A DNA stretch of 33,025 nt, taken from positions 1 through 33,025 of the forward strand of contig VBJT01000122.1 in NCBI GenBank assembly GCA_005880075.1, read 5' to 3'. The first letter of the stretch is position 1. Each line of letters begins with the position of its first letter. Source of the DNA: Chloroflexota bacterium. GTDB lineage: Bacteria > Chloroflexota > Dehalococcoidia > SM23-28-2 > RBG-16-64-32. Below are positions 5,750-31,446 of the stretch, piece after piece. The notes under the pieces are model-generated. The model saw only the letters and a list, made by a program, of their open reading frames with translations. It was not told the DNA's origin and made no database searches. Both the position numbers and the translations under genes were made by a program.

Positions 5750-6193
5750 ATGACGGGTTCAGGACCAGTGGTCGGGCCGGGGAGTGGATACAAGCCATCA
5801 CTCCGAATCGCCGGCCTCGCAACCGCCCTCGGCTTGATAGCGACACTTGCGGGCTGCAGGTTCTTATATTCATCCGCGCCTACGGATTGGGTTCTGGCGG
5901 AGGAGCCGAAGGGAAACCGGCTCTCTCTCGACATCGCGATTGGCGATTCGTGCACGTCGCTGGATCAAATCGGCGTTTATGAATCTCCGACCGAAGTAAA
6001 CATCCAAGCGTTCGTTGACAGGCAAGGCGCCAGGCAAGGTGCCTCGGGTTGTAATTCAATTTTGAAAACCGAGCGGCATGAGATTGACCTCGCTCGGCCT
6101 CTTGGGGCTCGGGACCTGAGGGGATGCGATGCATCTGGCAACAAACATCTGCTCAGGGACGCGCTTAAAGACTGCCACAGCCTGCGTAGGTAG
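5750..6193 (+). CDS. Hypothetical lipoprotein
   Basis: Hydrophobic stretch ending in lipobox LAGC; several further Cys; exact start uncertain. Confidence 0.65.
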   Translation: MTGSGPVVGPGSGYKPSLRIAGLATALGLIATLAGCRFLYSSAPTDWVLAEEPKGNRLSLDIAIGDSCTSLDQIGVYESPTEVNIQAFVDRQGARQGASGCNSILKTERHEIDLARPLGARDLRGCDASGNKHLLRDALKDCHSLRR

Positions 6194-6209
6194 ATCAGGT
6201 CTCGCCGCG

Positions 6210-6254
6210 AAGTTGATCCTCGGCCGCGAGCTGCTCGGCGTCCCCGCCTTCTGA
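6210..6254 (+). repeat. Direct repeat copy 2: orphan 3' end of the acyl-CoA dehydrogenase gene
   Basis: aagttgatcctcggccgcgagctgctcggcgtccccgccttctga = the same peptide; 37/45 nt identical to copy 1. Confidence 0.9.
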
Positions 6255-6259
6255 ATAAG

Positions 6260-6286
6260 CAAACGAGGCGCCTTGCGCCTCGTTTG
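6260..6286 (+). terminator. Hairpin, probable terminator
   Basis: Perfect 12-bp stem caaacgaggcgc-ctt-gcgcctcgtttg just after repeat copy 2. Confidence 0.6.
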
Positions 6287-6462
6287 TCCCCTCCCTTAGG
6301 CCCCACGAGCGGGCTTTCGGGTTACCGCACGCGTAGGCAAATTCTGTTTGGTTGCGGAATGTGTGTCAACCCGCTTTCAGCCGGGCACTCGGGATCTCGC
6401 TGGTTGGCTGAAATTTTGTCGGTCGTATCGAGCTCCCGATGGTCTACAATACAGAAAAGAGC

Positions 6463-6706
6463 ATGGTTACCGAAGACGTCATCATCGAGGGCCTGCGGGA
6501 AGTTTACGACCCGGAGTTGCATTACAACATCTACGACCTCGGCCTCGTCTACGACATCAACGTCAAGGACGGTCACGGAGCAGATCAACGAGAGCATCGG
6601 CCTGATTCCCGGCGTGAAGAACGTCGGCGTAGAGTTTACGTTCGATCCCCCCTGGACGCCCGACCAGATGAGTGACGAGGCGAGGGCTGACCTCGGCCTC
6701 GACTAG
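6463..6706 (+). CDS. Metal-sulfur cluster assembly factor (DUF59/SufT-like), interrupted near 6575
   Basis: LREVYDPELHYNIYDLGLVY and FDPPWTPDQMSDEAR are in different frames; the central MTLTxxxCP segment is missing. Confidence 0.85.
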
Positions 6707-6718
6707 CCGAAAGAAGCC

Positions 6719-7009
6719 ATGGAATCCAAGATCGCTGAGCGCTACCCGGGCCGCCTCACCATCGAAATCACCTACTGTATAGAGTGAGGATACCTGCCCC
6801 TGGCCGCCTGGATGGCGACCGAAATCTGGCACGACTTCGGTGAAGACGCGCCCGTCACCCTGATTCCGGTTGGCTCCGGCCGCCTCGAAGTGATCGCCAA
6901 CGGCGAAGTCCTTTTCGACCGCAAGGCAGAGGGCGGAGCCTACCCCGATATGAAGCGCATCCGGGCGATCAAGGCGGAGATCCGGAAGCGGTTAGAAACC
7001 GGCTCTTAG
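6719..7009 (+). CDS. Rdx (SelT/SelW/SelH) family selenoprotein, Sec encoded by TGA 6785-6787
   Basis: MESKIAERYPGRLTIEITYCIE-TGA-GYLPLAAWMATEIW...LIPVGSGRLEVIANGEVLFDRK...YPD: CxxU motif in frame with ORF 6812..7009. Confidence 0.85.
6802..6820 (+). promoter_or_regulatory. Candidate bacterial SECIS hairpin
   Basis: GGCCGCC-UGGAU-GGCGACC stem-loop starting 14 nt after the UGA, with G in the apical loop. Confidence 0.5.
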
Positions 7010-17962: not shown

Positions 17963-17990
17963 TGTAACAGGGTGGCCGGAGGGGCGTCTA
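17963..17990 (+). promoter_or_regulatory. Putative ECF-sigma promoter upstream of the sigma gene
   Basis: TGTAAC-N16-CGTCTA. Confidence 0.7.
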
Positions 17991-18071
17991 TTGTTCATCC
18001 CAAGAGTTGAGGGTTCGCAAGAACCGTCAGTAGCCCGTGTCTTAGACACGGTGGATGACGAGGGCCGGAAT

Positions 18072-18692
18072 ATGACAACGATGCGCGTGGCGATGGCAGA
18101 AGCCTTGAAACAGCAACCGTCAGTCAAGGCCGAACAAGCGCAGACTGCGACCGAAGTGCCGCAGACGGAAGCCGGCACGAAGCCGGTGGAATTCACAGAC
18201 CTCTACCACCAGTACTTCCCCAAGGTCTTCGCCTACGTATACGGCCGGGTGCAAGACAAGGAAATCTCTCTCGATATCGTCTCGGACGTATTCGAGAAGG
18301 CATTCATCAAGATGCGGTCGTTACGCTCGCCGGACTCCTTCGGGTCATGGCTGTTCACGATCGCGCGGAATGAAGTTTCATCGCACTGGCGAAAGACAAA
18401 GCCCGCCGCCCGAGCTGCCCAGGAAGCCGCCTGGGAAACCGAGCTGCACTCGCAGCCGCGGGGCCCGGAAGAAACCGTGCTGCACAAAGAGAGGCTCGCC
18501 TCACTTTCGCAGCTCGTGCGCCAGTTGCCTCGGCGGGAGCAGGAAATCATCGCTCTGAAGTTCGATGCCGAGCTCACGAACCGTGAGATCGCGAATGTGC
18601 TGAGCACAAGCGAAGTGAACGTGCGGGTCACGGTCTTTCGCGCGCTGCGCAAGCTGCGGGAGCGCCTCCAGACCAGCGGCGACCGTACATGA
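18072..18692 (+). CDS. ECF-family RNA polymerase sigma factor
   Basis: FTDLYHQY, DIVSDVF, SWLFTIARN, LPRREQEII, EIANVL...VRVTVFRALRKLR. The ORF-track TTG 17991 abuts the -10 element, so a later ATG is more likely. Confidence 0.92.
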   Translation: MTTMRVAMAEALKQQPSVKAEQAQTATEVPQTEAGTKPVEFTDLYHQYFPKVFAYVYGRVQDKEISLDIVSDVFEKAFIKMRSLRSPDSFGSWLFTIARNEVSSHWRKTKPAARAAQEAAWETELHSQPRGPEETVLHKERLASLSQLVRQLPRREQEIIALKFDAELTNREIANVLSTSEVNVRVTVFRALRKLRERLQTSGDRT

Positions 18693-19939
18693 ACGAAGAG
18701 GAGCGGGCCGAATGGCTGGCCCGCGCCATCGACGATCTGCTTAACAAGGATCGTTCACGCCCCCAAGAACCCGCACCACCAAAATTCGAGCGACAGGAAC
18801 TCAACGCGCTGCTGCGCATCGCGAACGCGCGCGCTGAGCAGGGCGATGCGTCGATACAGACGGGCGTCCAGTACGAAGGCGCGGTCTGGCGACGAGTCCT
18901 CGAACGGCTGGACAGGCGCCGCACTTCGCGCGAGGTCCGGCCCCTCGACGCCAGCGAGCCGGCAAACCCGGAAGAAGCGATGGCTGCGAGGGCTCTCGAG
19001 GAAATGGAAATCGATGAGCTACGGGAAATCGCCCGCCTGCGCAGGATGATGGCCGAGCGGGCCGCCTCGATCGGAGAGTCGCAGCGGGACCGTGTCTGGG
19101 AGAGAGTTCAGTCACGTATTCAGGCGCAGCCCCGGAAGAGATGGCCGTTTACATTCTTTGTCCCGAGGACAAACAAGGCGCCTCTAGCCGGGGGCACGGA
19201 TGATCGCGCCGCTTCGGCAAGCCATTCGCTTCGTGAAGGGGAAAGGCGAGCGGCAGAGCGAAGCACGGAAGGTGCATACGCGGAAGAGGCCCATCCCGGC
19301 TTGGCCGGCGGCTGGCAGAAGACGGCAGCCGCGGCTGCGCTGGTCGTGTTGATCGCTGTCGCCCTTGCGCCCTTGCCGGTGACCGGCTTCGCCGAGCATC
19401 CCATTGCAGGCGTCCTGCGTTCCATCGGCGAGCACCTCGGCGTCAGAGAAGCCGGCGCGCCTCCCGCACCGCCACCCGTCACAGCCGTGGTCCGGGGCAG
19501 CGAGATTACGGCCGCCGAAGCGTCGGACCGGCTGGGCGTGCGGGTGGGAGTCCCGGTCACGCCCCCGTCGGGATTCGAGCTGACGTCGGCACGGTTCTTC
19601 GACCAGGCGCTCACTGCGGACGAGGGCGGTACATACGCGCTCACGTATTCGCGGGCAGGTGGATCGAGCGTGGTCATCTACCAGGAACGCGCGTCCGGAA
19701 AAGAGTTGAGCGTTGAGGGCGGCTCCGCGACTGACGTTGCTCTTTCGGACGGGACCGCGGGGACGTACGTCGAGGGGATGTGGCAGCCGGTGGACGGCAA
19801 GCTGGTCTGGAGCGCGGGCGGCGCGCAGACTCTCGTCTTCGAGCGCGGCGGGCTGCGGACGACAATCCAGTACACGGGCCCGCAGGCCGAAGCGCCCTCG
19901 CTGTTCGCGCTCGCGGACAGCATGTCATCCGCCCCCTGA
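18689..19939 (+). CDS. Putative membrane-anchored anti-sigma factor
   Basis: ATGA-coupled to the ECF gene; cytoplasmic helical N-domain, one TM helix (AAAAALVVLIAVALAPL), extracellular beta-rich domain. Confidence 0.75.
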   Translation: MNEEERAEWLARAIDDLLNKDRSRPQEPAPPKFERQELNALLRIANARAEQGDASIQTGVQYEGAVWRRVLERLDRRRTSREVRPLDASEPANPEEAMAARALEEMEIDELREIARLRRMMAERAASIGESQRDRVWERVQSRIQAQPRKRWPFTFFVPRTNKAPLAGGTDDRAASASHSLREGERRAAERSTEGAYAEEAHPGLAGGWQKTAAAAALVVLIAVALAPLPVTGFAEHPIAGVLRSIGEHLGVREAGAPPAPPPVTAVVRGSEITAAEASDRLGVRVGVPVTPPSGFELTSARFFDQALTADEGGTYALTYSRAGGSSVVIYQERASGKELSVEGGSATDVALSDGTAGTYVEGMWQPVDGKLVWSAGGAQTLVFERGGLRTTIQYTGPQAEAPSLFALADSMSSAP

Positions 19940-20003
19940 AAGCCGAAGCCCCTCCACAGCACTCCTTTACTCTGGCTACAATTAAAGCGACCGGAGGCTC
20001 GCC

Positions 20004-20468
20004 ATCAGAAAGCTACCCAGATTCTCAGGCCGTGTTACATTCGGCGCCCTTGCCCTGTCGGCCCTGATAATTACTGGCTTTCTGCTGCTATCCGGCTGGC
20101 TTAGCTCTGACGATAACTCAGGGGATCGGACGGCTGAGGCAGACGCCACGGGCCGAGTTCCTATGGTCGAGCCGGAAGGTACGGTACTGCCGGAAGTCAT
20201 GCCGACGTCGCCACCGCACATTATCATTAAGGGCCAGCAGGTGATGCTAGCGCCGGGGATGAGGTACTGGCGTTCGAGTCCAGAGGTGGACCCGGCCCCA
20301 CCATCGCCAATCCCCGAGCGCTGGATGGTGACGTATGACTCGGATCTCACCACGCTCGGAGACTCCTGGATTACATTCGATCTCGACTACAACCTACTGG
20401 CGAGCCATATACGCCCTGAGGATCAAGACGAATTCCAGCCGATTCTCGACGCGCTCGCGGCGCCGTAA
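20004..20468 (+). CDS. Hypothetical exported/membrane-anchored protein, possible ATC start
   Basis: The frame of ORF 20163 is open upstream through a signal/TM segment to ATC 20004, 6 nt after GGAGG; TACAAT at 19977-19982. Confidence 0.55.
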   Translation: MRKLPRFSGRVTFGALALSALIITGFLLLSGWLSSDDNSGDRTAEADATGRVPMVEPEGTVLPEVMPTSPPHIIIKGQQVMLAPGMRYWRSSPEVDPAPPSPIPERWMVTYDSDLTTLGDSWITFDLDYNLLASHIRPEDQDEFQPILDALAAP

Positions 20469-20544
20469 GCGCGTGCTCGATGTGGGTCGCAGGGGTAGCG
20501 TGGAGGCCTGAAAGGTGCGCCGCACAGGTGTCGCCGGACGGGGG

Positions 20545-20724
20545 TTATTCGATGTCTTCACGCGCGCGGCGTTCGCGCATCATCTCGTAGAGGAGGTTCT
20601 CTACAATCATGAGGAGGAGGAGGACCTGGCGCTGCTGGCGGCGGGACATGCGCCCCAGCATCTGGAGTAGTTCAGGGTCAATCTTTTCGGCGAGAGCGAG
20701 GCGGTCGTCCGGCAGGTCGGCCAT
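20545..20724 (-). CDS. 59-aa stand-alone XRE C-terminal domain protein (SinI-like antagonist candidate)
   Basis: MADLPDDRLALAEKIDPELLQMLGRMSRRQQRQVLLLLMIVENLLYEMMRERRAREDIE*; TAATG overlap with the upstream XRE stop; aligns with the C-domains of both XREs. Below the ORF-track cutoff. Confidence 0.8.
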   Translation of the reverse strand: MADLPDDRLALAEKIDPELLQMLGRMSRRQQRQVLLLLMIVENLLYEMMRERRAREDIE

Positions 20725-21206
20725 TAGCGACGGGCCCGCCTGAGCTCCGGATGTCCCTTCGAGACGGTCGTTACCGGCGAACGCTTCAGGGCGAGCGGGC
20801 CGGTGGTCACGCCGTCCGGGGTCGCCCAGTCAGGCCCGTTGGCGGTTACGGAGTAGCCGTTGAGCACTTGCTCCATACCCTGGAGGATGAGGAGCAAGCG
20901 GCGCTGGCGGTCCCGCGGCATTTTGCCGAGATAGCCAAGCAGGCCGGCATCTACCGTCGATTCGTAGTCCTGGTAGACCTGGCGGAGCATGCGCACGGTC
21001 GGATAGCCCGCAGCTTCGAAGAGCTCATCGGGATCGATCTGCATCGCCTGAGCGACGCGCAGCAAGACAGCCGCCGAGGGGTTCTTCACCTCGCCGTTTT
21101 CGAGTTGCGAGAGGTAGCCCTGGCTCACCGAGGAGCCGCTGGCGAGCTGTCCCTGGGTGAGACCGAGCTCATCGCGTATTTGCCTGATCCTGTCTCCTAA
21201 TCGCAT
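20724..21206 (-). CDS. XRE-family HTH regulator 2
   Basis: LGDRIRQIRDELGLTQGQLA...SQGYLSQLENGEVKNPS; GGAG SD before ATG 21206. Confidence 0.92.
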   Translation of the reverse strand: MRLGDRIRQIRDELGLTQGQLASGSSVSQGYLSQLENGEVKNPSAAVLLRVAQAMQIDPDELFEAAGYPTVRMLRQVYQDYESTVDAGLLGYLGKMPRDRQRRLLLILQGMEQVLNGYSVTANGPDWATPDGVTTGPLALKRSPVTTVSKGHPELRRARR

Positions 21207-21238
21207 CTTGTCGCTCCGCCTAACTGAGAGTCGCAAAA

Positions 21239-21267
21239 ATTGTCGATGCTCCTCGCCAGCTTGTCAA
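21239..21267 (-). promoter_or_regulatory. Putative housekeeping sigma promoter for XRE2 and the small protein
   Basis: TTGACA-N17-GACAAT on the minus strand. Confidence 0.6.
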
Positions 21268-21317
21268 TAATTCCTCTTGCCGCTGCCCCGAATCGATGGA
21301 CGGGGATCGGGTGCTCC

Positions 21318-21698
21318 CTAACTAGCGCTGGGCCTGGCGGCCGCTGTGGCTCCGCGCTCCATCCCCTTGAACAGCTTGAGCAGGCGTGCCTGCTGCTCTC
21401 TCGGAATTCGCGCCAGAAACGATAAGAGATCAGGGTCGACAGAGACCTCGTAGCGGCCCGCGTTCCCCTCCTCCTGCCCGATCTCCGCGTAGCCGGCCGC
21501 TTGCATGAGAACGCGGGGGTCGATATGGAGCGAGCGGGCCAGCCGAAAGATGACGGCCGCGCTCGGGTTCTGGACATCGTCGTTCTCGAGCTGCGATAGG
21601 TAGCCCTGGCTGAGCTCCGCCTGGGCAGCAAGCTGCGCCTGGCTCATACTGAGCTCGTCCCGAAGACCCCGGATTTTCTTTCCCAGCGACACCCGCAT
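21318..21698 (-). CDS. XRE-family HTH regulator 1
   Basis: LGKKIRGLRDELSMSQAQLA...SQGYLSQLENDDVQNPS; 6 nt downstream of tadC. Confidence 0.92.
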   Translation of the reverse strand: MRVSLGKKIRGLRDELSMSQAQLAAQAELSQGYLSQLENDDVQNPSAAVIFRLARSLHIDPRVLMQAAGYAEIGQEEGNAGRYEVSVDPDLLSFLARIPREQQARLLKLFKGMERGATAAARPSAS

Positions 21699-21704
21699 AT
21701 CTCC

Positions 21705-22589
21705 TTACGAGAGGGACTGAGCGATGCGGATGGCAGCCGGCCCGAGAATAACGAGCAGGAAAGCCGGGAAAATGAACAGCACGAGCGGGAAAAGCATCTT
21801 GATCGGCGCCTCGTGGGCAGACTTCTCGGCCCGCTGCCGGCGCTTGGTACGAAGCTGATCAGACTGCACGCGAAGCACCTGCGCGATGCCGACACCAAGC
21901 TGCTCGGCCTGAATGATCGAGGTGATGAACGTGGTGAGCTCCTCAACACCAATGCGCTGTTCCAGTTCGGTCATCGCCTCCCTACGCATCTTACCCATCG
22001 CGACGTCGCGCAACATGCGAGAAACAACGCGGGCGAGAGCGGCGTCCAGACCGAGGCCGGCCTCCACACAGGTGGTGATCAGGTCCATCGCGTCGGGCAT
22101 GGCCCGGATCACCAGCTTCTGACGGGCCTTTACTTTGCCCTTGAGCCAGATGCGCGGGAACACGAAGCCAAGGGCCGCGAACATTACAACAAAGAGCAGT
22201 TTCTGAATGAGCAGGCTGCCGGGAAGGACGACGAAGAAGACGAGGCCCAGTCCGGTAAACGTTGAGAAGAGTACCCCCCAGAAAGTGAGATACGTTTGAA
22301 GGGTCATAGGATGGCCCGCCATCATCAGCTGTTTCTGTATGTCGGACAAGACCGAAGCTGGAAGCACCGAACTGATGGTGCGGGAGAACCCTTCGATGGT
22401 CGGCCTGAGTACTCGCTCGCCGAAGGGAAGTTCCAGGTTTACCTCATCCTCTTCCATAGAGACCGCGCGAGTGCGAAAGTCCTGAATTCGGGATTCCATG
22501 CTGGTGCCGCGCTTAGCGCCGCCGAACATGGCGTAGACGATGGACATTATCGCCCCAAAGACAGATACAGCTGCGAATGCGATGATCAT
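21705..22589 (-). CDS. tadC: Tad pilus assembly protein TadC (T2SS-F family)
   Basis: PDAMDLITTCVEAGLGLDAAL, QAEQLG, APIKMLFPLVLFIFPA; probable short in-frame deletion near 22025. Confidence 0.88.
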   Translation of the reverse strand: MIIAFAAVSVFGAIMSIVYAMFGGAKRGTSMESRIQDFRTRAVSMEEDEVNLELPFGERVLRPTIEGFSRTISSVLPASVLSDIQKQLMMAGHPMTLQTYLTFWGVLFSTFTGLGLVFFVVLPGSLLIQKLLFVVMFAALGFVFPRIWLKGKVKARQKLVIRAMPDAMDLITTCVEAGLGLDAALARVVSRMLRDVAMGKMRREAMTELEQRIGVEELTTFITSIIQAEQLGVGIAQVLRVQSDQLRTKRRQRAEKSAHEAPIKMLFPLVLFIFPAFLLVILGPAAIRIAQSLS

Positions 22590-22598
22590 TTGTGGCTC

Positions 22599-23588
22599 CT
22601 AAATCTCAATCGCCATGATTCGCTTCATGGAGAAGTAGCCCATGAGCTGGAGGCCGATTGCCGCGACCAGCATGCCCTTGCCGATCGTCTAGGTGATGAG
22701 GAGGCTCATGTAACCCGGGTTCATAACCATGAAGATCGCGAACATGAACACCGGGAGGCCGCCGATAACGATACCCGTCATCTTCTGCTGGGCCACCAGC
22801 GTATTGATCTCGCCCCGGATGCGCTCCCGCTCGCGCATGGTACTCGCAACCTTGTCCAGAATCTCGGCCAGGTTGCCGCCGACCGTGCGCTGTATATTGA
22901 TCGCGGTGAGGACCATATCGAGGTCGCTGCTGTCGATGCGCTCGCCGACGGCGTTCAGAGCATCCTCAGCGCCCATGCCCAGGTTGGAGTCGCGAAGCAT
23001 CCTGCGGATCTCCAGGGAGATTGGGGGCTGCATTTGCCTCGAGGCGAACTCGAAACTCTGCATAAGGCCGTAACCGGACTTAAGCGAGTTCGAGACTAAG
23101 CCAAGAAGGTCGACGAGTTGCTGGTTGATTTTGTTTAGCCGCGACTTCTTCTTGTTGTTCACCCACATAGCGGGCAGCATATAGCCGACCACCGAAAGGC
23201 CAATGCCGAGAAACAGGTTGAAGGCGGCGAAGCCGAAAACGAAAGGAATGACGAGAAAGAGCGCCGCCATACCCCAACGAATCAGGTAGAATTCGCCGAC
23301 GCGCAGGGGGACGGCCGCACGCTCGAGGTGAATGGCCATCGCCTCCGAGCCGCCAAACTGGGCAAGGAATGTGCTGAGCACGGGTAGGCCGCTGTAAGAG
23401 CGCTTCTCTCGGAAGGTGGCTTTGCCCGGCGCGGCAGTGCTCTGCGGAAGCGGCCCTCCTCCGGAACGAAAAGCTTCCAGCCGCGAGCTCATCGGGTCGT
23501 CCTGCCCGCCCCGGCTTGTAAGGCCAACAGCTGCCAGGATGAACGCGAAGAAGATGGTGATAGCAATGCCGATAATAAGTGGGTCCAT
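22599..23588 (-). CDS. tadB: Tad pilus assembly protein TadB, with an in-frame TAG at 22689-22691
   Basis: SNSLKSGYGLMQ, IQRTVGGNLAEILD; after the TAG the frame continues TIGKGMLVAAIGLQLMGYFSMKRIMAIEI*, a typical TadB end. Confidence 0.85.
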
Positions 23589-23590
23589 GA

Positions 23591-24958
23591 TTACCTCGCG
23601 CGGGCCAGGAACAGCCCGTCCGGGAGTTTGATCCCGGACTGTTCGAACTGCTCGGTAAATGTGGGCCGGATGCCCGTAGGCGACATCAGCCCTTCGATCT
23701 TGCCCTCAGGGCTGACGCCGGTCTGCTGGAATCGGAAAAGGTCCTGCAGGGTGATGATCTGCCCTTCCATTCCGCTGACCTCAGTGACGTGAGTAACGCG
23801 CCGGACACCGTCCGTGAACCGCGAGAGCTGGACAATGAGGTGCAGGGCCGAAGCAACCTGCTCGCGGATCGCCCTGTCCGGCAGCTCGAGGCCGGCCATG
23901 AGGACCATGTTCTCGACACGGGCGAGCCCGTCTCGCGGAGAGTTGGCGTGGACGGTGGACATAGAGCCTTCGTGGCCGGTGTTCATGGCGTTGAGCATGT
24001 CGAACGCCTCCTGGCCTCGGATCTCGCCGATGATGATCCTGTCAGGCCGCATGCGCAGTGTGTTGCGCAGGAGGTCTCTCTGGGATACCTCGCCGCGGCC
24101 GTCTATATTGGCCGGCCGCGCCTCCAGACTGACGATGTGCGGCTGCTGCATCTTGATTTCGACCGGGTCCTCGATGGTGATAATGCGCTCTGTTTCAGGG
24201 ATATACGCCGAGAGCGCATTGAGGAACGTGGTCTTGCCGGTACCCGTACCGCCCGAGATGAGGATGTTCAGTTTGACCTGCACGCAGGCCTTCAGGAACT
24301 CCACCATGTCTTCGGTGATGGTGCTGGCGTTGACGAGGTCGTTCATCTGGAGCTTGTCGGCGCGGAATTTTCGGATGGTAATAGTCGGGCTCTTCGGCGC
24401 GACGGGTGGAATCACGACGTTGACACGCGACCCGTCCGGCAGGCGCGCGTCCACCATTGGAGACGACTCATCGACACGCCGTCCAATCGGCGCGATGATC
24501 CGCTCAATGACGCGCGCGATGTGCTGGTCGTCGCGGAAGCGGACGTCGCTCAGGTAGAGGATACCCTCGCGCTCGAAGTAGACCTCGTCGGGCCGGTTGA
24601 CCATGACCTCTGAAATCGAGGGGTCGCGCATGAGAGCGTCGATCGGCCCCAGGCCGACGACCTCGTCGACGACGCGCGACACGATCTGGTCGCGGGTGAT
24701 GCCACCGACGCCGGGCATCTCACGCCGCAGCAGCGTCTCGGCCGCCTGCTCGACGACTTTGCGGCGCTCATCTGCGGGCATGGCGCTGATCTGGTCCGCA
24801 TCCAGCTCATCGATGAGCATCTGGTGCATGCGGAAGATAAGCTGCTCCATATCCTCGTTGTAGCGGCCAGGCGTCGTCCGGCTCGGGCCCATGGCCGGCC
24901 GTAGAGTGGGTGCCTGGGGTCTGCCTGATTGAAAGCTTGTCATCTTGTCACTCCACAC
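23591..24958 (-). CDS. cpaF: Tad pilus assembly ATPase TadA/CpaF
   Basis: VDARLPDGSRVN, GGTGTGKTT, LRMRPDRIIIGEIRG, AMNTGHEGSMSTVHAN. Confidence 0.95.
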   Translation of the reverse strand: MWSDKMTSFQSGRPQAPTLRPAMGPSRTTPGRYNEDMEQLIFRMHQMLIDELDADQISAMPADERRKVVEQAAETLLRREMPGVGGITRDQIVSRVVDEVVGLGPIDALMRDPSISEVMVNRPDEVYFEREGILYLSDVRFRDDQHIARVIERIIAPIGRRVDESSPMVDARLPDGSRVNVVIPPVAPKSPTITIRKFRADKLQMNDLVNASTITEDMVEFLKACVQVKLNILISGGTGTGKTTFLNALSAYIPETERIITIEDPVEIKMQQPHIVSLEARPANIDGRGEVSQRDLLRNTLRMRPDRIIIGEIRGQEAFDMLNAMNTGHEGSMSTVHANSPRDGLARVENMVLMAGLELPDRAIREQVASALHLIVQLSRFTDGVRRVTHVTEVSGMEGQIITLQDLFRFQQTGVSPEGKIEGLMSPTGIRPTFTEQFEQSGIKLPDGLFLARAR

Positions 24959-26198
24959 TTACTTCAGTTTTGTCTTCAGGGACCGATCCAAGGATCCGGC
25001 TAAGCAGGCCGCCCTTCTGCACTTCTCTTGGCTTGGGCGCCTGTTGCTGCCGCCGGACCCCGCTTAGCGCGTAAGCCATTTCCGTCAGGCTCTCGGACGC
25101 CTTGGACTGGGGCTTCGCGACCACCACCGGCATGCCCAGCTGCGTGGCGGCGCTAATGTTGCGGTCGTAAGGCACCGCCCAGAAGACGTCGCGGCCCAGC
25201 ATTCGCCGGATTTCGTGGGGCTGGACATTACTGGCCTCGTTGGTCGAATTAATTACGAGTTTGATCTTGTCCTGCGGAAAGTTCCAGGAGCGCAGCATGT
25301 CGATGGCGAGCAGGGTGTCCTTCAGGCTCGCCATATCGACCGTGCAGATGAGGACAACCATAGTTGCCATCTCCAGCGCCCGGGCGACGATGTCGTTGAA
25401 GGTGCCGGGCGTGTCCAGGATGACGTAGTCGTGGGTCTGCATGAGCAGGGTGACAACGCGCTCGATGTGGCCGGCGTGGACGTTGCGCCAGTCCGTGGGC
25501 CGGATCGGCGCAGGAAGGATCGTGACGCCGGTGTTGTGCGTGTACGTGCACTCCTCGACGATCTCGCGCGTAATATCTTCCTCTGGCATCGCCAGGTCCG
25601 CGATGCTCCGCTCGACCGGGATGTCCATGAGAATCGCGACGTCACCGAACCGCGTGTCGAGGTCAACGACGACGACCGACTGTTTGGTCTTCTGAACGAG
25701 CGCGGTCGCGAGGTTGGTGGCGATCGTCGTCTTGCCGATGCCGCCCTTGGCGCCGAATACGGTGACGACCGTGCCCGCGGCGATCGGTTCGTCCGTTTCG
25801 CCTGCGAGCCTGGCCCGGCGCCGTTCCTCCTGTGCGAGGACCGCGTGGATGGAGTTGATTAGCTCCTCTTCCTTCACGGGGCTGCCGAGGTAGTCCTTGA
25901 CACCCGCCACCATCGCCTTACGCATCGGCCCGGAGCCCTTGATCGAGGAGTGGCCGATGATTGGGGACTGCGGCAGGAGGTCCGCCAGGGCCTCGACCGT
26001 TTGTAGCGCCCGGATCTGGGGCTCTTCGATGGCGATTACGACCACATCCGGCTCGGTCTTCTTGGCCAGCGAGACGGCCTCGATGCCGTAGCCCGCCTCT
26101 CCGAGGACGCTGAACCCGGAAAGGGCGAGCATCTTCTGCACCTCGTCCCGGCTTACGGGTTCGGGGCCAATCACAATCACGCGTGGATTACGTGCCAT
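24948..26198 (-). CDS. cpaE: CpaE/TadZ (pseudo-receiver plus MinD/ParA-like ATPase)
   Basis: N-terminal receiver lacking the phospho-Asp (DVVVIAI); KGGIGKTT deviant Walker A; VILDTP. Confidence 0.88.
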   Translation of the reverse strand: MARNPRVIVIGPEPVSRDEVQKMLALSGFSVLGEAGYGIEAVSLAKKTEPDVVVIAIEEPQIRALQTVEALADLLPQSPIIGHSSIKGSGPMRKAMVAGVKDYLGSPVKEEELINSIHAVLAQEERRRARLAGETDEPIAAGTVVTVFGAKGGIGKTTIATNLATALVQKTKQSVVVVDLDTRFGDVAILMDIPVERSIADLAMPEEDITREIVEECTYTHNTGVTILPAPIRPTDWRNVHAGHIERVVTLLMQTHDYVILDTPGTFNDIVARALEMATMVVLICTVDMASLKDTLLAIDMLRSWNFPQDKIKLVINSTNEASNVQPHEIRRMLGRDVFWAVPYDRNISAATQLGMPVVVAKPQSKASESLTEMAYALSGVRRQQQAPKPREVQKGGLLSRILGSVPEDKTEVSVE

Positions 26199-26237
26199 CG
26201 CCTTCCTTAGCTCCCTTCAGACTCTGCCGCCTGGCTC

Positions 26238-27095
26238 CTATTGGCCGAGGGCCGAAACACCCAGGACTTTGGCACAGGTCGGAGGCGGACCGTCGGCCGG
26301 CCACTGCGTGCGGTTGGAGAGCGCTTGACCGTCTCCGACGCCGCGCAGCGAGACGGACAAGCGGCCGCCGTGGTTGTGCGCACATGTTTCGGCCATCGCC
26401 ACAGTCTCACCCTGTATCGGCGATACACCAAGGGTCATGCTCGTGGCCGCCTGGTTAGCCTGCGTGGATTTACTGGGATCGCTGCTAGCCTCGGCATTTG
26501 GGTTGGTCGTCGTCTGGTCAACGGCCAGGACTTTTGCGTTCTGGATGATGGTGGCCGCCAACTGGTCCGATGTGCCCTGCGTGTCCCCTTCGGGCTTGAC
26601 CTGCACGATCAGAATCACGTCCACGAAGTCGCCGGGCCGGATGTTTCCGCCGGCGCCGATGACGCTGCTCAGCTCAATTGAGACCGCGCGCTGGCCCGGG
26701 TCGATGATGAGTGCCAGCGGCGGCTTGTCGCCAAATGCACTGATATTCGTAGTGCCGGTGACCTTGGTCTGGATGATCTGTTCGCCCGCAACAAGAGGCA
26801 CTCGCGTCACCTGACCGGACAGCCCCTCGACGCTCGAGAAAGCGCCGGCGAGCTGGGTGCCCTGGGGGATGCTTTCGACTCGGAGCATGGCGGCAGTCAG
26901 GCGCGTGCCGGCGGGAATCTCCTGTGCCGCGACAACTGTCGGCGCACCTTCACCGTTGCTGCTCGTGGAGCCGCCTTCGTCCTTGGCGCTGGTCAGGTAG
27001 ACCACCACGAGGACCGCTGCGACGAGGCCCAGGATGAGCCCGAGGATAAGCGGGAGTCTGCTGCCGCCCTTGGAAAGGGCCATACCTTTAATCAT
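26238..27095 (-). CDS. cpaB: Flp pilus assembly protein CpaB/RcpC
   Basis: TM helix, SAF domain (VVAAQEIPAGTRLT), GQRAVSI, IRPGDFVDVI, KVLAVDQ. Confidence 0.92.
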   Translation of the reverse strand: MIKGMALSKGGSRLPLILGLILGLVAAVLVVVYLTSAKDEGGSTSSNGEGAPTVVAAQEIPAGTRLTAAMLRVESIPQGTQLAGAFSSVEGLSGQVTRVPLVAGEQIIQTKVTGTTNISAFGDKPPLALIIDPGQRAVSIELSSVIGAGGNIRPGDFVDVILIVQVKPEGDTQGTSDQLAATIIQNAKVLAVDQTTTNPNAEASSDPSKSTQANQAATSMTLGVSPIQGETVAMAETCAHNHGGRLSVSLRGVGDGQALSNRTQWPADGPPPTCAKVLGVSALGQ

Positions 27096-27140
27096 GCGTA
27101 CACCTCGACATAGAGAAATGTGCTGCTTGGTTCAGAAAGA

Positions 27141-27169
27141 AAGATGGTTTGCTCTCCAGTGGCGTTACA
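27141..27169 (-). promoter_or_regulatory. Putative ECF promoter of the cpaB-cpaE-cpaF-tadB-tadC-xre operon
   Basis: TGTAAC-N17-CATCTT. Confidence 0.7.
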
Positions 27170-27310
27170 ATGTTTACCGATTAATCCGGTCATTTTTCTT
27201 AAGTCCGGCCGGCTGGCAATCCGGCGCTCCCGACCGAGGGACCGATTGCCGGCGACGCCCTGCGGGGCTCCCGACATTGAGGTCCAGGCGGGCGGGCAAG
27301 GTGTTCCTCT

Positions 27311-27340
27311 AAAGAAAGAGCGGGCGCGTTGTGCGCCCGC
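27311..27340 (-). terminator. Intrinsic terminator after tadE
   Basis: GCGGGCGC-ACAAC-GCGCCCGC followed by UCUUUCUUU. Confidence 0.75.
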
Positions 27341-27402
27341 GTGTTGTCGTTTTGTTTCCGCCGGCAATTTATTCCGCCGGCTCGGACCTCCGCTGTATGG
27401 GT

Positions 27403-27864
27403 TCACTCCAACCGCATATCAGCCGTCGAAGTGAACTTCAGCGTCGGGCCGATTTTACCGCCGCTTATTAAGCCGAGCATGTTGTCAAGAGGGGTGATCA
27501 GGTCGTAGTCGTAATCAACCTTCACCACAACCGACGAGCCCGGCGTGCCCTGTGCGTTAGTGACGGTCGAGGTGAGCTTCGCCTGGTTCAGCGACTCGGC
27601 CGTTTCCTTGACGCGGCAGGTGATATTCGTGGCTTTCGTGCTGGGATCGTTATCGCAGGCGCCGGAAGCAGGAGCTCTGACCGCCCCAAGCCGAGCACCC
27701 TCGCGGGCTGAGTTAGTTACTGTGAGCCAGGCGTGGAAGCCGAGACCGAAGTCGATGATGGCGAAGACCAAAATGAGGAAGATCGGCAAGACGAGGACGA
27801 ATTCGGCCAGGCTCTGGCCCTTTTCGCCCTTTCGCAAGAGTCCCTTTGTGCGCTTGGTAGTCAT
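27403..27864 (-). CDS. tadE: TadE/TadG-family pseudopilin
   Basis: KGQSLAEFVLVLP, NSAREGARLG; ATG 27864 follows a GAAGGGA SD-like sequence. Confidence 0.9.
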   Translation of the reverse strand: MTTKRTKGLLRKGEKGQSLAEFVLVLPIFLILVFAIIDFGLGFHAWLTVTNSAREGARLGAVRAPASGACDNDPSTKATNITCRVKETAESLNQAKLTSTVTNAQGTPGSSVVVKVDYDYDLITPLDNMLGLISGGKIGPTLKFTSTADMRLE

Positions 27865-28023
27865 TCTGATCCGTCCCTTCCGTCCGGCCCGCGGACGAGC
27901 CGCAGAGTCTTGATAAGAGAGCGCAGGGGTCACGGCCTATCGGCGCGCGACCCCCGAGCTACCTTGTTATCAACAACAGCGGTCTGTTGCCGACGTTTGA
28001 GCCCTGAAGGCTCCGGATCGATC

Positions 28024-28206
28024 TTAGAGCGAGCCCGTGATGCTGGACAGGGTGCCCGCGATCGCCAGACCCAGGGCAGTCAGCGCGAGGATGCAAACGA
28101 CCGCGATGAGGGCCAGAAGCAGACCGTACTCGGCCAGCGCCTGTCCGTCCTCACGCTCGTGGCGCGACGCGAACCACACCAGGGCTTCGTTGATCTTGGA
28201 GAGCAT
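28024..28206 (-). CDS. flp: Flp family type IVc pilin (copy A)
   Basis: EDG|QALAEYGLLLALIAVV Flp motif; AAGGAGG SD. Confidence 0.93.
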   Translation of the reverse strand: MLSKINEALVWFASRHEREDGQALAEYGLLLALIAVVCILALTALGLAIAGTLSSITGSL

Positions 28207-28263
28207 TCGTCTCCTCCTTTCCAAACTAATTGATCGCTTGGTTGAGAACCTTCTCCGCCAAGT

Positions 28264-28292
28264 TAGATGGGAGTGGTGGTTCGCCCGTTACA
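28264..28292 (-). promoter_or_regulatory. Putative ECF promoter of flp A
   Basis: TGTAAC-N17-CATCTA. Confidence 0.7.
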
Positions 28293-28370
28293 CCTTATCC
28301 GCCCGGTTCACGAAGATTTCACCGTCGGCAGTGAGCGAGCGAGCGGCGTGTTTGCAGGGCGAGAGCCGGC

Positions 28371-28411
28371 AAATAAGAAGAGCGGCCCGCAGCGAATACG
28401 CAGCGGGCCGC
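28371..28411 (-). terminator. Intrinsic terminator after flp B
   Basis: GCGGCCCGC...GCGGGCCGC stem followed by UCUUCUUAUUU. Confidence 0.75.
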
Positions 28412-28434
28412 ATAAGTTCCCCGGTGCAGTTTCT

Positions 28435-28617
28435 TTAGAAAGCGCCGGTGATGCTGGACAGCGTGCCAGCGATCGCCAGACCCAGGGCGGTCAGCGCGAG
28501 GATGCAAACGACCGCGATGAGGGCCAGAAGCAGACCGTACTCGGCCAGCGCCTGTCCGTCCTCGCGCTCGACGCGCGTCGCGAGCCGCGTCAGAGTCTCG
28601 TTGATCTTGGAGAGCAT
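28435..28617 (-). CDS. flp: Flp family type IVc pilin (copy B)
   Basis: Same Flp motif; mature part identical to copy A except the last two residues. Confidence 0.93.
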   Translation of the reverse strand: MLSKINETLTRLATRVEREDGQALAEYGLLLALIAVVCILALTALGLAIAGTLSSITGAF

Positions 28618-28672
28618 TCGTCTCCTCCTTTCCAAAAAATTGATCGCTTGGTAAGGACCGTCTCCGTGAAGT

Positions 28673-28701
28673 TAGATGGGGTTGGCCGTACAGCCGTTAC
28701 A
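28673..28701 (-). promoter_or_regulatory. Putative ECF promoter of flp B
   Basis: TGTAAC-N17-CATCTA. Confidence 0.7.
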
Positions 28702-28838
28702 GCTTATGCACTCGGTAAACGAAGATTTCACCTTTGATTACTAAAGTCGGCGAGCGGTAAAGGAAGCGGCACAAGCAGCGGCTGGTTGGATTGCGACGAG
28801 CAACGTGAATTTCTGGCCGGTACCTGACTCTCTTACCT

Positions 28839-29804
28839 TTAGAAAGCCAGCGCGAGCTTGATTGAAACCAGCAGAATCAGTGCGCCCGTTAGGAGGAATA
28901 TAGCGCTGGGCCGGCTCGTAAACCCCGGTGGGACCCTGACGGGGCCAATCCTCTCGGGGCCCGGGCGCGCAGCGGGCCCAAAGGCAGGCGCGGGCTGCGA
29001 AACCGGATCCGGAGATGAGCGGCGCGGCCACGCCAGGCTGATCTGCGCTGCAAGCGCGATTGTTACGGCAACCACAACGCCGCCTAACACATCCACAACA
29101 TAGTGCTCGCCGGAGAGGACCACCTCAAAGCCAATCAGAACCGAGTAGGCAAGCATTGCCAGGGCAGGAAGCCTCCAGCGCTCGCGGAATAACCAGAGGC
29201 TGATGAGGAGAGGAAGCGCGACATGCAGGCTGGGCATCGCCGCCAGCGGGTTGTTGTCCGGAATCTCGCGGGCTGCGTGCAATGCCACAAGTCGTGTGAC
29301 CTCCGCGTTCGCCATCCACGGCGGTTGCAGTGGAAAGAGCGCGAACATCGGATTAACGACAAAGTGTAATGTGATCCAGCACAGAAAGAACGAGCCGATC
29401 CGCTCGGGCCTCTTCCACGAGACAAGGAGACCAACCAACCACGGCACGACGAACCAGGAACCGTGGACGGCCCTCACCGCCCACGAAAAGAACGTGGGCG
29501 AGAGCGGGTAGACGTGGTTTTGTAACCACATGGTCGGAAGCGAGCCGAACACGGCCTCCTCTGTGGCTGCGCCGTGGACGGGCAAACCAAAATCGTCCAT
29601 GTACCCTCGGATCACTGCGCAGACCGCGAGGGCGAGCCAGGCCAGTACCCACCAAAAGAAGAGTTGTCTGTGTTGCGGTTCTCGCAGTAGACCTCTCGCC
29701 CATGCGAGCGTGAACCCTCTTCTCGGCCTAACAGTGCCTGAAATTGTGGACATGGGTCGTTGGGTCGCCTTCCGCGGAAAACTGCTTCGCTGCAAAGTCT
29801 GCAA
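28839..29804 (-). CDS. PAP2-superfamily membrane protein (PAP2_3/IPC-synthase-like)
   Basis: PLQPPWM, NPLAAMPSLH, HYVVDVLGG; several TM helices; start could be ATG 29753. Confidence 0.85.
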   Translation of the reverse strand: MQTLQRSSFPRKATQRPMSTISGTVRPRRGFTLAWARGLLREPQHRQLFFWWVLAWLALAVCAVIRGYMDDFGLPVHGAATEEAVFGSLPTMWLQNHVYPLSPTFFSWAVRAVHGSWFVVPWLVGLLVSWKRPERIGSFFLCWITLHFVVNPMFALFPLQPPWMANAEVTRLVALHAAREIPDNNPLAAMPSLHVALPLLISLWLFRERWRLPALAMLAYSVLIGFEVVLSGEHYVVDVLGGVVVAVTIALAAQISLAWPRRSSPDPVSQPAPAFGPAARPGPERIGPVRVPPGFTSRPSAIFLLTGALILLVSIKLALAF

Positions 29805-29852
29805 GCGAGCAGCCGGTCAGAAATGAGCAGCAATCGCCTGCGGTCATCAGTA

Positions 29853-29881
29853 CTGACGTAGCCCGAAAGAAGGCCGTTACA
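29853..29881 (-). promoter_or_regulatory. Putative ECF promoter of the PAP2 gene
   Basis: TGTAAC-N17-CGTCAG. Confidence 0.6.
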
Positions 29882-30031
29882 GATCGAAGCAGCCGCCGAG
29901 TAGACGCAAAAACGCGGGCGAGGACGTCGGAGACGGGACACCCCGCGGACGGTCGACATGGTTGCCAACCTTTCATTGAACCGTCGCGTTCCAACTCATT
30001 AGATGCGGCGTTCTTTTCCGAGTAACCGGCA

Positions 30032-30760
30032 GTGATATTTTTTGCAGCTCTGATCGGTTTCGCCGTGGGCCACCTCGTCCACCTCCTCTTCGACCGCTTC
30101 TTCAGCGGAGAGCCAGTGCGCGGGCCGCTCTACGAATGTCCGGCCTGCCGTTCACCTGTTAGACCGGTCGCGGCCATACCCTACGCCACCGTGGTCCTTT
30201 CCGGCGGCCGCTGTCCCAACTGCCGCGAGAAACTGCCCTGGCGCGCGGTGATACTTCCAGCCGGCGCAGCGGGCCTTTTCGCCCTGTCGTACCTGGCGTT
30301 CGATGAATTGGCCGCCGGCCTCCTGGGTGGGTTGTTCGCAACCGTCTTCTTGACCCTCACTCTTACCGACCTAGAACGCCGGCTGCTTCCGAACCGCATC
30401 GTCTACCCTTCGATTCTGCTGGCGATTGCCTTCTGTTGGGCCTGGCCGGACACGACCTGGGTGCAGATCCTGGCGGGCGGCGCCGTTGCGATAGCGATCG
30501 CCGTGCTCATCTACCTCTTCTCACTGTTGTTCGGCCCGGAAGCCTTCGGGATGGGCGACGTCAAAATGATCGTCCTCATCGGGTTTGTCGTCGGATTCCC
30601 GGCCGTGATTGTTGCCGTATTGCTCGGGACCGTCGCTGCGGGGATTGTCGCCGCTGTTCTGGTTGTTACCCGCCTGCGCGGGCTACGAGACTACGTGGCT
30701 CATGGGCCCTTTCTGGCCCTGGGCGCCGTCCTGGCGCTGTTGGCCCAGCATAGTCATTGA
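30032..30760 (+). CDS. A24 prepilin peptidase with N-terminal Zn-binding domain
   Basis: CPAC...CPNC, TDLERRLLPN, FGMGDVKM, HGPFLALG. Confidence 0.9.
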   Translation: MIFFAALIGFAVGHLVHLLFDRFFSGEPVRGPLYECPACRSPVRPVAAIPYATVVLSGGRCPNCREKLPWRAVILPAGAAGLFALSYLAFDELAAGLLGGLFATVFLTLTLTDLERRLLPNRIVYPSILLAIAFCWAWPDTTWVQILAGGAVAIAIAVLIYLFSLLFGPEAFGMGDVKMIVLIGFVVGFPAVIVAVLLGTVAAGIVAAVLVVTRLRGLRDYVAHGPFLALGAVLALLAQHSH

Positions 30761-30794
30761 ATGCTAATCGAATAAGCGAATCGGGTGCGCTTCG

Positions 30795-30823
30795 TGTAAC
30801 GGCCGGCGATAGGGGCCAGTCCT
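30795..30823 (+). promoter_or_regulatory. Putative ECF promoter of the methyltransferase gene
   Basis: TGTAAC-N17-AGTCCT (weaker -10). Confidence 0.5.
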
Positions 30824-30868: not shown

Positions 30869-31446
30869 ATGGCGACGGTACAGACCGCGCTCCCGCTGCG
30901 TAGACAACTGATCCGAGCTCTGACCAAGCTCGAGAACACTTTCCCAGCGCTCGTCTGGTTCTTCCTTGTGGTCTTCCAGCTCGCCAAAGCCTACGAAACC
31001 CCCTGGGTTTCCACCATCGGCCTCCTAATGATCAACTCGGTTGCGATGGTCCTCTTCCTGACTCGTCGAGATGCGTCGCGGATCGGGAACGTCTGGGAAG
31101 GCTTGCTGGCGGTTTCAGGCACCTTCGTGGTTACTCTGCTGCTCATCGTCTCGGATGACGACGAGGCGACGCTCGGGCCCGGGGCATCACCTCTCGCGAC
31201 CTTCCTCCAGTGCATCGGTATCGCCGGATGGGCGGCCTCGCTCTTCGCGCTCGGTCGGAGCCTGGGGATAGCTCCTGCGGACCGAGGGCTTGTCCGGCAC
31301 GGGCCTTATCGCTTTATCAGGCATCCCCTCTACGCCTTTGGGCAGCGCTCCAGATCGGCCGGATCGTCCGCGAGGAGAGGATCATCGGCGGCTACGAGCA
31401 GTACCGGCAGCAAGTTCGCTGGCGCCTGATCCCGTTCGTCTGGTAG
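30869..31446 (+). CDS. ICMT/PEMT-family membrane methyltransferase, interrupted near 31340
   Basis: LGRSLGIAP...LVRHGPYRFIRHPLY, then in another frame RIVREERII..YEQYRQQVRWRLIPFVW*. Confidence 0.82.

Follow-up and report, generated by a model that had tools for sequence, protein, structure and literature searches.

A candidate extracytoplasmic function sigma factor regulon for a Tad pilus in uncultured Chloroflexota

Tad pili are widespread organelles of adhesion and colonisation. This report concerns a tad locus of an uncultured member of the Chloroflexota, an adjacent gene for an extracytoplasmic function (ECF) sigma factor and a set of matching promoter-like elements that is distributed over both. 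The stretch of DNA analysed (the window) comprises the first 33,025 of the 37,251 bases of contig C103 of the host genome (G000), a metagenome bin of 2.6 Mb in 281 contigs with 62% G+C and a completeness of 79%. The gene identities as first read hold up in Pfam searches, namely an ECF sigma factor, cpaB, two Flp pilins, a PAP2_3 protein and a PEMT/ICMT-type methyltransferase (Table 1), and the Tad/Flp (type IVc) set is recognised by Pfam, with TadA/CpaF, TadB/TadC, TadZ/CpaE, CpaB/RcpC, TadE and an A24 peptidase. No secretin (RcpA/CpaC) was found among the 21 open reading frames (ORFs) scanned between 13.8 and 33 kb, some small ORFs lying outside the scan, which fits the monoderm-type, secretin-less tad loci expected of Chloroflexota. 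Both pilins carry a leader and the Flp processing motif G/XXXXEY (G/QALAEY), in the sequence ...REDG/QALAEYGLLLALIAVV.

An earlier note on this DNA had described six TGTAAC-N16/17-(C)RTC sites, and all six were recovered with the coordinates and -10-like hexamers listed in Table 1, in intergenic DNA and in the correct orientation. Read literally, TGTAAC-N{16,17}-RTC matches only the site of the sigma gene; in the other five sites RTC lies one base later, and this is the bracketed C of the pattern. The site of the sigma gene, TGTAAC-N16-CGTCTA, is situated 109 nucleotides (nt) 5' of its ATG and has the AAC at -35 and the CGTC at -10 that are typical of ECF promoters. For each of the six sites the distance to the start of the longest ORF is between 66 and 109 nt, and every motif promoter comes after a terminator or a divergent gene. 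Since the promoter regions of flpA and flpB are duplicates of each other, the six sites amount to five independent ones.

Table 1 Features of the window and of unlinked loci in the host genome
Feature	Position	Strand	Remarks
glcDEF	ends 17792		5' of the ECF sigma gene
ECF promoter	17963-17990	+	-35 TGTAAC 17963-17968, N16, -10 CGTCTA 17985-17990
ECF (group 4) sigma factor, 206 aa	18072-18692, real ATG 18072	+	Pfam Sigma70_r2 48.5 bits, Sigma70_r4_2 42.5 bits
Putative single-pass anti-sigma factor, 416 aa	18689-19939	+	start overlaps the sigma stop by 4 nt (ATGA)
HTH regulator 'a', XRE-type	20724-21236	-	Pfam HTH_3 55.1 bits; true start probably 3' of the longest-ORF start
HTH regulator 'b', XRE-type	21318-21698	-	Pfam HTH_3 44.8 bits; start 7 nt past the tadC stop
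Assembly operon cpaB-tadZ-tadA-tadB-tadC	21705-27095	-	assigned by Pfam
tadC	21705-22589	-	Pfam T2SSF
tadB	22689-23588	-	Pfam T2SSF
tadA/cpaF	23591-24958	-	Pfam T2SSE 232 bits
tadZ/cpaE with receiver domain	24948-26198	-	ParA/AAA_31 and Response_reg
cpaB	26238-27095	-	Pfam RcpC 85.8 bits
cpaB operon promoter	27141-27169	-	TGTAAC 27169-27164, N17, CATCTT 27146-27141
Intrinsic terminator 3' of tadE	27320-27340	-	stem of 8 G-C pairs, then T run; closes the flpA-tadE unit
TadE-like pseudopilin	27403-27933	-	Pfam TadE 61.2 bits
flpA, Flp prepilin	28024-28224, likely ATG 28206	-	Pfam Flp_Fap 25.8 bits, below the cut-off of 32.2
flpA promoter	28264-28292	-	TGTAAC 28292-28287, N17, CATCTA 28269-28264
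flp upstream box GGTGAAA	28317-28323; second copy 28726-28732 before flpB	-	31 nt 5' of the -35 hexamer
flpB, second Flp prepilin	28435-28635, likely ATG 28617	-	Pfam Flp_Fap 26.4 bits, below the cut-off of 32.2
flpB promoter	28673-28701	-	TGTAAC 28701-28696, N17, CATCTA 28678-28673
PAP2_3 membrane phosphatase-like protein	28839-29804	-	Pfam PAP2_3 73.2 bits
PAP2 promoter candidate	29853-29881	-	TGTAAC 29881-29876, N17, CGTCAG 29858-29853
A24 prepilin peptidase		+	after the PAP2 gene; Pfam Peptidase_A24 56.2; no motif in the window
Methyltransferase promoter candidate	30795-30823	+	TGTAAC, N17, AGTCCT
PEMT/ICMT-type membrane methyltransferase	30869-31429	+	weak ICMT match in the window copy
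GGDEF motif site	G000:C271:6957-6983; gene 6041-6934	-	orthologous loci L122-L137
GAF-HD_5 (HD-GYP-type) protein, motif	G000:C262:11196	-	motif about 70-90 nt 5' of the start
AAA_16-TPR-BTAD STAND protein, 1083 aa, motif	G000:C237:32115	-	motif about 70-90 nt 5' of the start

The motif is strongly over-represented in the window. TGTAAC occurs 13 times on both strands together, against 3.78 ± 1.76 in 100 dinucleotide shuffles (largest value 10; none reached 13), and the bipartite pattern TGTAAC-N16/17-NRTC occurs 7 times, against 0.28 ± 0.53 in 500 such shuffles (largest value 3; none reached 7). The whole genome of 2.6 Mb contains 34 matches to this pattern, six of which fall into the 12.9-kb interval from 17963 to 30823, where 0.17 would be expected. 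The seventh match in the window, TGTAAC-N17-CATC at 9774 (+), lies outside this interval. A further TGTAAC at 20039 (-) was rejected as a chance occurrence: it has no -10-like element and runs into the 3'-terminal part of the anti-sigma gene, and the ORF beside it (19982-20353) has no match in relatives. A scan for sigma-70-type promoters was uninformative, with 5 matches (2.4 ± 1.4 expected); a single weak one (9/12) lies just 5' of the cpaB site, and the motif sites of the ECF, flp, PAP2 and methyltransferase genes have none.

Upstream of the sigma gene, the first 20 orthologous loci all have TGTAAC-N16/17-GCGTCTATTGTTC with unrelated spacers, and in an enlarged and de-duplicated set [TC]GTAAC-N16/17-CGTCT is found at 47 of 49 loci, again with unrelated spacers; one of the two exceptions reads GGTAAC-N16-CGTCTGAA. 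None of the 23 listed loci of paralogous ECF genes has TGTAAC upstream. The putative autoregulatory promoter of the sigma gene is conserved in sequence, and its function as such is probable.

A two-block matrix, as the earlier note had recommended, was trained on the sigma-gene promoters of 41 non-redundant relatives with the window excluded. Applied to both strands of the window, it places the ECF (29.9 bits), PAP2 (15.3 bits), flpA (14.6 bits), flpB (13.0 bits) and cpaB (11.3 bits) sites on ranks one to five, followed by a sixth match with 9.8 bits; the methyltransferase site scores below 8 bits. In 50 loci (735 kb) the matrix finds 102 matches of at least 11 bits. Leaving aside those directly upstream of the sigma gene itself, 54 remain, against 10.6 ± 4.1 (largest value 19) in shuffled versions of the whole 50-locus set. 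Forty-five of the 54 are located at most 350 nt 5' of a gene of the tad locus on the right strand (21 before flp, 18 before cpaB, 2 before PAP2, 2 before HTH, 1 before the methyltransferase and 1 before the peptidase gene), 4 lie inside genes and 5 elsewhere.

The conservation of the individual sites, which had also been put forward as a check, was tallied as the presence of [TC]GTAAC-N16/17-NRTC within 300 nt upstream of each gene at orthologous loci. Besides the sigma gene, the motif is kept with varying spacers before flp (21/23 loci), cpaB (26/30) and the methyltransferase gene (4/4), and it is rare before the PAP2 (1/5), peptidase (1/14), helix-turn-helix (HTH; 2/38) and tadE (1/26) genes. 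It was not found before tadZ (33 loci), tadA (34), tadB (34), tadC (36), the anti-sigma gene (34), glcF (25) or phzF (3). The methyltransferase loci keep TGTAAC-N17-(A/T)GTC(C/T)TA in all four cases. Of the two membrane enzymes that had been assigned to the regulon, the methyltransferase is retained, with a divergent -10 element, and the site of the PAP2 gene is not conserved. What the motif is, where it stands, how far it is conserved and how specific it is are direct observations.

The -10 elements of the individual promoter classes are not uniform. The sigma gene's own element is CGTCTAT, and many cpaB promoters of relatives have CGTCATT. At the flp genes of the order-level relatives L031, L032 and L034 the element is CGTCTAA, so that their pilin promoters share the -10 type with the sigma gene. 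The flp promoters carry an additional element, RGTNAAW, 31 or 32 nt 5' of the -35 hexamer, at which a second regulator may bind. This box was defined post hoc; it is present at 19 of 21 flp promoters and at none of 25 cpaB and 46 ECF promoters. Two tandem copies of the promoter motif precede flp at seven loci (L025, L069, L071, L076 and L112-L114), the distal copy, YGTAAC-N16/17-C(G/A)TCTT, being situated about 120 nt 5' of the proximal one.

Gene order and phyletic distribution tie the sigma factor to this pilus locus. The closest loci belong almost all to metagenome-assembled genomes of uncultured Chloroflexi/Chloroflexota or Dehalococcoidia. Where the ECF protein is at least 59% identical and the contig reaches far enough, the arrangement is glcF-ECF-(anti-sigma)-HTH-HTH-tadCBAZ-cpaB-...-tadE-flp-peptidase; in the one exception (L109, genome G014) the tad locus is on another large contig, and flp still has TGTAAC-N17-CATCTTA 85 nt upstream. 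In all, the sigma orthologue stands beside the same secretin-less tad locus in four families that belong to a single order of uncultured, Dehalococcoidia-like Chloroflexota. A sigma match with 53% identity or more is present in 32 of 40 relatives, and a tadZ orthologue (at least 62% identical) and the sigma orthologue occur together in four families. Six of the eight sigma-negative relatives make up family f2; they are also devoid of the orthologous tadZ and contain only a tadZ paralogue with 43-46% identity. The two remaining sigma-negative relatives are bins of 72-73% completeness, one of which (G003) shows the identical promoter. When the class was sampled evenly, the sigma orthologue turned up in 4 of 151 genomes, all four from this order. 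One locus of family f3 (L035; G026:C52) has a sigma factor with 53% identity and no tadZ match, and at this locus TGTAAC-N16-CGTCTC is located upstream of an XRE HTH gene instead (2410, -). The host genome contains a second, paralogous tad locus (C211:47800-53650, +) with tadE, cpaB, tadZ (39%), tadA (57%), tadB and tadC, in which no correctly placed motif was found.

The motif also marks genes that are unlinked to the tad locus. In the host genome the matrix yields 64 matches of at least 11 bits, most of them inside long open frames. Three genome-wide matches are conserved, each with a constant distance between the motif and the start codon, and they belong to a membrane-bound GGDEF cyclase, a GAF-HD_5 protein and a STAND regulator. 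The diguanylate cyclase (Pfam GGDEF 138.1 bits, intact motif RLGGDEFG) is preceded by TGTAAC-N16/17-CGTCT at 16 of 16 orthologous loci, and its orthologues were found in families f1, f4, f5 and f6, all of which have the sigma factor, and not in f2 or f3. For the other two genes (orthologous loci L191-L225), a motif of at least 11 bits is present at 10 of 15 GAF-HD_5 loci, with 2 more of 9-10.6 bits at a similar position, and at 12 of 18 STAND loci, with 2 more of 9.9 bits. In 21 genomes of the sigma-bearing families, TGTAAC-N16/17-CGTCT occurs 169 times and its reversed form, used as a control, 21 times; the corresponding numbers for three f2 genomes are 7 and 2. The best additional match in the host genome (C248:11672, 20.6 bits) was rejected, with a hairpin and a T run within about 30 nt and no credible gene, and the one at C37:1190 (17.7 bits) precedes a 379-aa ORF without a Pfam family. 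Genes behind pattern sites in the genomes G008, G014 and G015 code for RecX, RDD, CAP and YchF-like proteins and seven proteins without a family; each was seen once, and they are not claimed as targets.

The sigma factor itself is a short protein whose Pfam matches are limited to Sigma70_r2, Sigma70_r4_2 and Sigma70_r4, i.e., regions 2 and 4. It matches the NCBIfam model of the sigma70-ECF superfamily, TIGR02937, with 94.1 bits (cut-off 42.9). The best specific NCBIfam model is that of the BldN family (TIGR02952) with 120.5 bits (equivalog cut-off 206.45), and because this score is below the cut-off of 206 bits the protein is not regarded as a BldN-family member. Its closest solved relative is the ECF sigma chain 6dxo_A, from what we take to be the BldN-RsbN entry. 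In two assemblies of few contigs the sigma gene lies in two pieces (G011:C2:1317232-1317866 and G022:C1:796340-796958, one of them with a TAG), and in genome G017 the frames of tadZ and tadA are broken; these cases reflect either sequencing frameshifts or real decay.

The gene directly downstream, which is kept beside the sigma gene in relatives, codes for a putative anti-sigma factor without sequence matches in Pfam, NCBIfam or the PDB and without a known anti-sigma domain. An alignment of 20 orthologues shows a helical cytoplasmic part, a variable linker, one hydrophobic span (approximately residues 221-240) and a conserved outer domain; R118, V136 and W137 in the cytoplasmic helix are invariant. 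In the AlphaFold model the outer domain (residues 270-416) has a pLDDT (predicted local distance difference test) of about 85-93, and the remainder is modelled poorly. Foldseek searches gave weak matches only, none with an E-value of 0.001 or better. In a comparison with VIA-align the outer domain resembles most the C-terminal domains of MucB (Z 9.0, root-mean-square deviation (rmsd) 3.5 over 104 residues) and RseB (Z 8.9, rmsd 2.6 over 99 residues), against a background Z of 7-8. DUF4367 (Pfam PF14285) was detected in 1 of the 20 orthologues at E 0.069, with no match above threshold; DUF4367 clusters make up 25 of the 30 feature-based matches of the outer domain in the ESM Atlas (listed scores 0.91-0.92), which is a lead only. 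At one locus (L056:5923-6261, +) the gene after the sigma gene encodes a tail-anchored protein of 112 aa that has the conserved helix and no outer domain, and six others (L061, L062, L064, L068, L078 and L083) show no anti-sigma match beside the sigma gene; these six may be of the L056 type, and the short version is probably shared by a sub-clade. Because the candidate of L056 is without the outer domain, sensing by a predicted domain of this kind cannot be universal.

Taken together, these comparisons support the proposal of an ECF sigma regulon for a Tad pilus, both through the conservation of the sites and through a matrix that was derived from relatives only. We consider it quite probable that the sigma factor directs one regulon composed of its own operon, the Flp/Tad genes and the unlinked signalling genes. 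According to this model, the sigma factor would be kept inactive by the membrane protein encoded directly downstream, which presumably binds it; upon a presumably extracellular stimulus, the released sigma factor would guide RNA polymerase to promoters of the type TGTAAC-N16/17-C(G/A)TC(T/A). It would transcribe its own operon, thereby generating positive feedback, as well as flpB, flpA together with tadE, the assembly operon cpaB-tadZ-tadA-tadB-tadC-HTH and the gene of the membrane methyltransferase, and in this genome probably also that of the PAP2 enzyme. Its unlinked targets would be the diguanylate cyclase, the GAF-HD-GYP-type protein and the large STAND-TPR-BTAD regulator. Direct activation of the motif promoters by the protein encoded at 18072-18692, rather than by another factor, appears likely from the comparative data. 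The module would then represent a lineage-specific switch that ties the building of the Tad pilus to the turnover of cyclic di-GMP (c-di-GMP), i.e., to surface attachment.

Several points weigh against this model or limit it. There is a systematic difference between the -10 element of the sigma gene and those of the targets: flp has CATCTAA, cpaB has CGTCATT or CATCATT, and the methyltransferase gene has AGTCCTA, which is deviant though conserved and remains below 8 bits in the matrix scan. The PAP2 site is present only in this genome, one of five loci, the other PAP2 genes being only about 30% identical. Related genomes are not independent observations, and a single family contributes a large part of the conservation. 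As most of the 64 matrix matches in the host genome lie inside long open frames, single matches are unreliable without conservation, and the 79%-complete bin makes the list of regulon members incomplete. The response to an extracellular signal is a weaker part of the model, drawing as it does only on the topology of the anti-sigma candidate and on its modelled outer domain.

The difference in the -10 elements is the starting point of the alternative that survives best, in which the sigma factor is autoregulated from CGTCTAT, and the CATC-type promoters of flp and cpaB are read by a paralogous ECF sigma factor sharing the preference for TGTAAC. The G-to-A difference at flp is consistent within the family of the window, the host genome contains 13 ECF-like matches, and the targets reach 11-15 bits with a matrix that gives about 30 bits for the sigma factor's own promoter. 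However, CGTCTAA stands at flp in the distant relatives and CGTCATT at many cpaB promoters, the unlinked GGDEF and STAND targets have CGTCT, the 23 listed loci of paralogous ECF genes are devoid of an upstream TGTAAC, and the sigma orthologue shows joint gain, loss and linkage with this tad locus. We therefore judge a division of labour between two sigma factors to be improbable. Still less credible is the idea that the bipartite element is not a promoter and serves instead as the binding site of a transcription factor, e.g., of one of the two XRE-type HTH proteins. Two HTH regulators are indeed conserved in the locus, and the additional conserved box at flp indicates that other factors act there, but the element is asymmetric, consists of two short blocks at a spacing of 16 or 17 nt with a free spacer, has a fixed orientation at 50-260 nt from start codons, resembles typical ECF promoters in its AAC and CGTC blocks and precedes the sigma gene itself at nearly all orthologous loci. 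That the six sites are merely a chance cluster or the trace of local duplications is practically negligible: one flp promoter region is a copy of the other and the PAP2 site is not conserved, yet no shuffled window reached the observed count, the sites are conserved at orthologous and unlinked loci with divergent spacers, and the pattern outnumbers its reversed control by 169 to 21 in genomes of the sigma-bearing families.

The regulon model, in which a single ECF sigma factor reads all these promoters, can be extended to a master switch of surface attachment. A single release event would then co-induce the Tad pilus, the diguanylate cyclase, the HD-GYP-type protein as a candidate c-di-GMP phosphodiesterase and the STAND regulator, and a factor binding to the flp box would add a second gate for the production of pilin. 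The XRE regulators are candidates for this factor, and since they would be transcribed from a sigma-dependent operon, a feed-forward loop would result; the conserved, weaker CATC-type -10 elements at flp would then set the order of induction. This extended version is tentative, and we give it somewhat less than an even chance.

A few observations concern individual genes of the locus. HTH gene 'b' occupies the last or the penultimate position in the cpaB operon, and a 144-aa ORF at 21197-21631 (-) is a shadow frame over it. HTH gene 'a' is kept at the same position in relatives; a good sigma-70-type match (TTGACA-17-GACAAT, 10/12) lies upstream of it at 21239-21267 (-), and the gene may have a housekeeping promoter of its own. 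A hairpin with a T run is located directly 3' of flpB. In the methyltransferase gene (30869-31446, +) the frame shifts after approximately residue 157, apparently leaving it about 20 codons short in comparison with the orthologue L022:2910-3554, an intact protein of 215 aa that matches PEMT with 36.8 bits (cut-off 25) and ICMT with 25 bits (cut-off 24); the window copy is either a pseudogene or affected by an assembly error.

If the regulon model is correct, a Tad pilus has as its primary switch an ECF sigma factor and an anti-sigma factor of its own, syntenic with the pilus locus across four families, and the enzymes of the regulon probably make and break c-di-GMP. A regulatory circuit would thus become readable for soil Chloroflexota that lack any cultured representative, and since pairs of ECF sigma factors and promoters usually function in heterologous hosts, the native organism is not needed to test it. 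The locus further provides a set of promoters with natural -10 variants, a new anti-sigma candidate without a family and a natural minimal version thereof.

The mechanism as such is the standard one of ECF sigma factors; what appears to be new is the ECF group, the anti-sigma factor and the output. The literature searched contained no account of a tad locus under direct control of an ECF sigma factor, the nearest case being an indirect effect of SigX (PMC3832394), and the main text of the ECF classification does not contain pilus, pili, Flp or Chloroflexi, although its supplementary tables might list such a context (PMC7826278).

Several known systems are comparable. In Streptomyces, sigma-BldN, which belongs to ECF121 according to the classification (PMC7826278), controls the chaplin and rodlin genes together with RsbN, a single-pass anti-sigma factor that forms a class by itself (PMC6101532). 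The locus studied here shares with this pair the combination of an ECF sigma factor and a cognate, here putative, single-pass anti-sigma factor without similarity to classical anti-sigma domains, and a main output of secreted subunits of surface fibres, Flp pilins in this case and chaplins and rodlins in the other, as far as the same sections show (PMC6101532). It differs in its targets, its lineage and the outer domain, and its anti-sigma candidate matches no solved chain by sequence. The autoregulated operon with a predicted membrane anti-sigma factor also recalls sigma-E/RseA/RseB of Escherichia coli and AlgU/MucA/MucB of Pseudomonas aeruginosa. Unlike in those systems, the RseB-like domain would be fused to the anti-sigma factor itself, a resemblance that is modelled and has a Z score just above background, and the predicted regulon consists of a pilus and c-di-GMP enzymes, not of envelope repair functions.

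With regard to the pilus genes, the closest parallel is SigX of P. aeruginosa, likewise an ECF sigma factor that affects Flp/Tad genes: according to the parts of the study available, its loss lowers flp expression 17-fold, reduces that of the tad genes by a factor of 2 to 4 and alters how biofilms form or behave, and the effect is attributed there to reduced expression of PprB, the response regulator that controls flp directly (PMC3832394). The sigX gene is located outside the tad locus, and these parts report no ECF-type promoter at flp (PMC3832394). The sigma gene described here, in contrast, is syntenic with the tad locus, and both flp and cpaB have the motif immediately upstream. Regulators dedicated to the transcription of flp and of the assembly operon are likewise known in Caulobacter, with CtrA, a response regulator that acts with the housekeeping sigma factor, and in Pseudomonas, with PprAB. 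Unlike in these systems, in which response regulators (CtrA, PprB) work together with the housekeeping sigma factor, the primary device at the Chloroflexota locus would be an alternative sigma factor.

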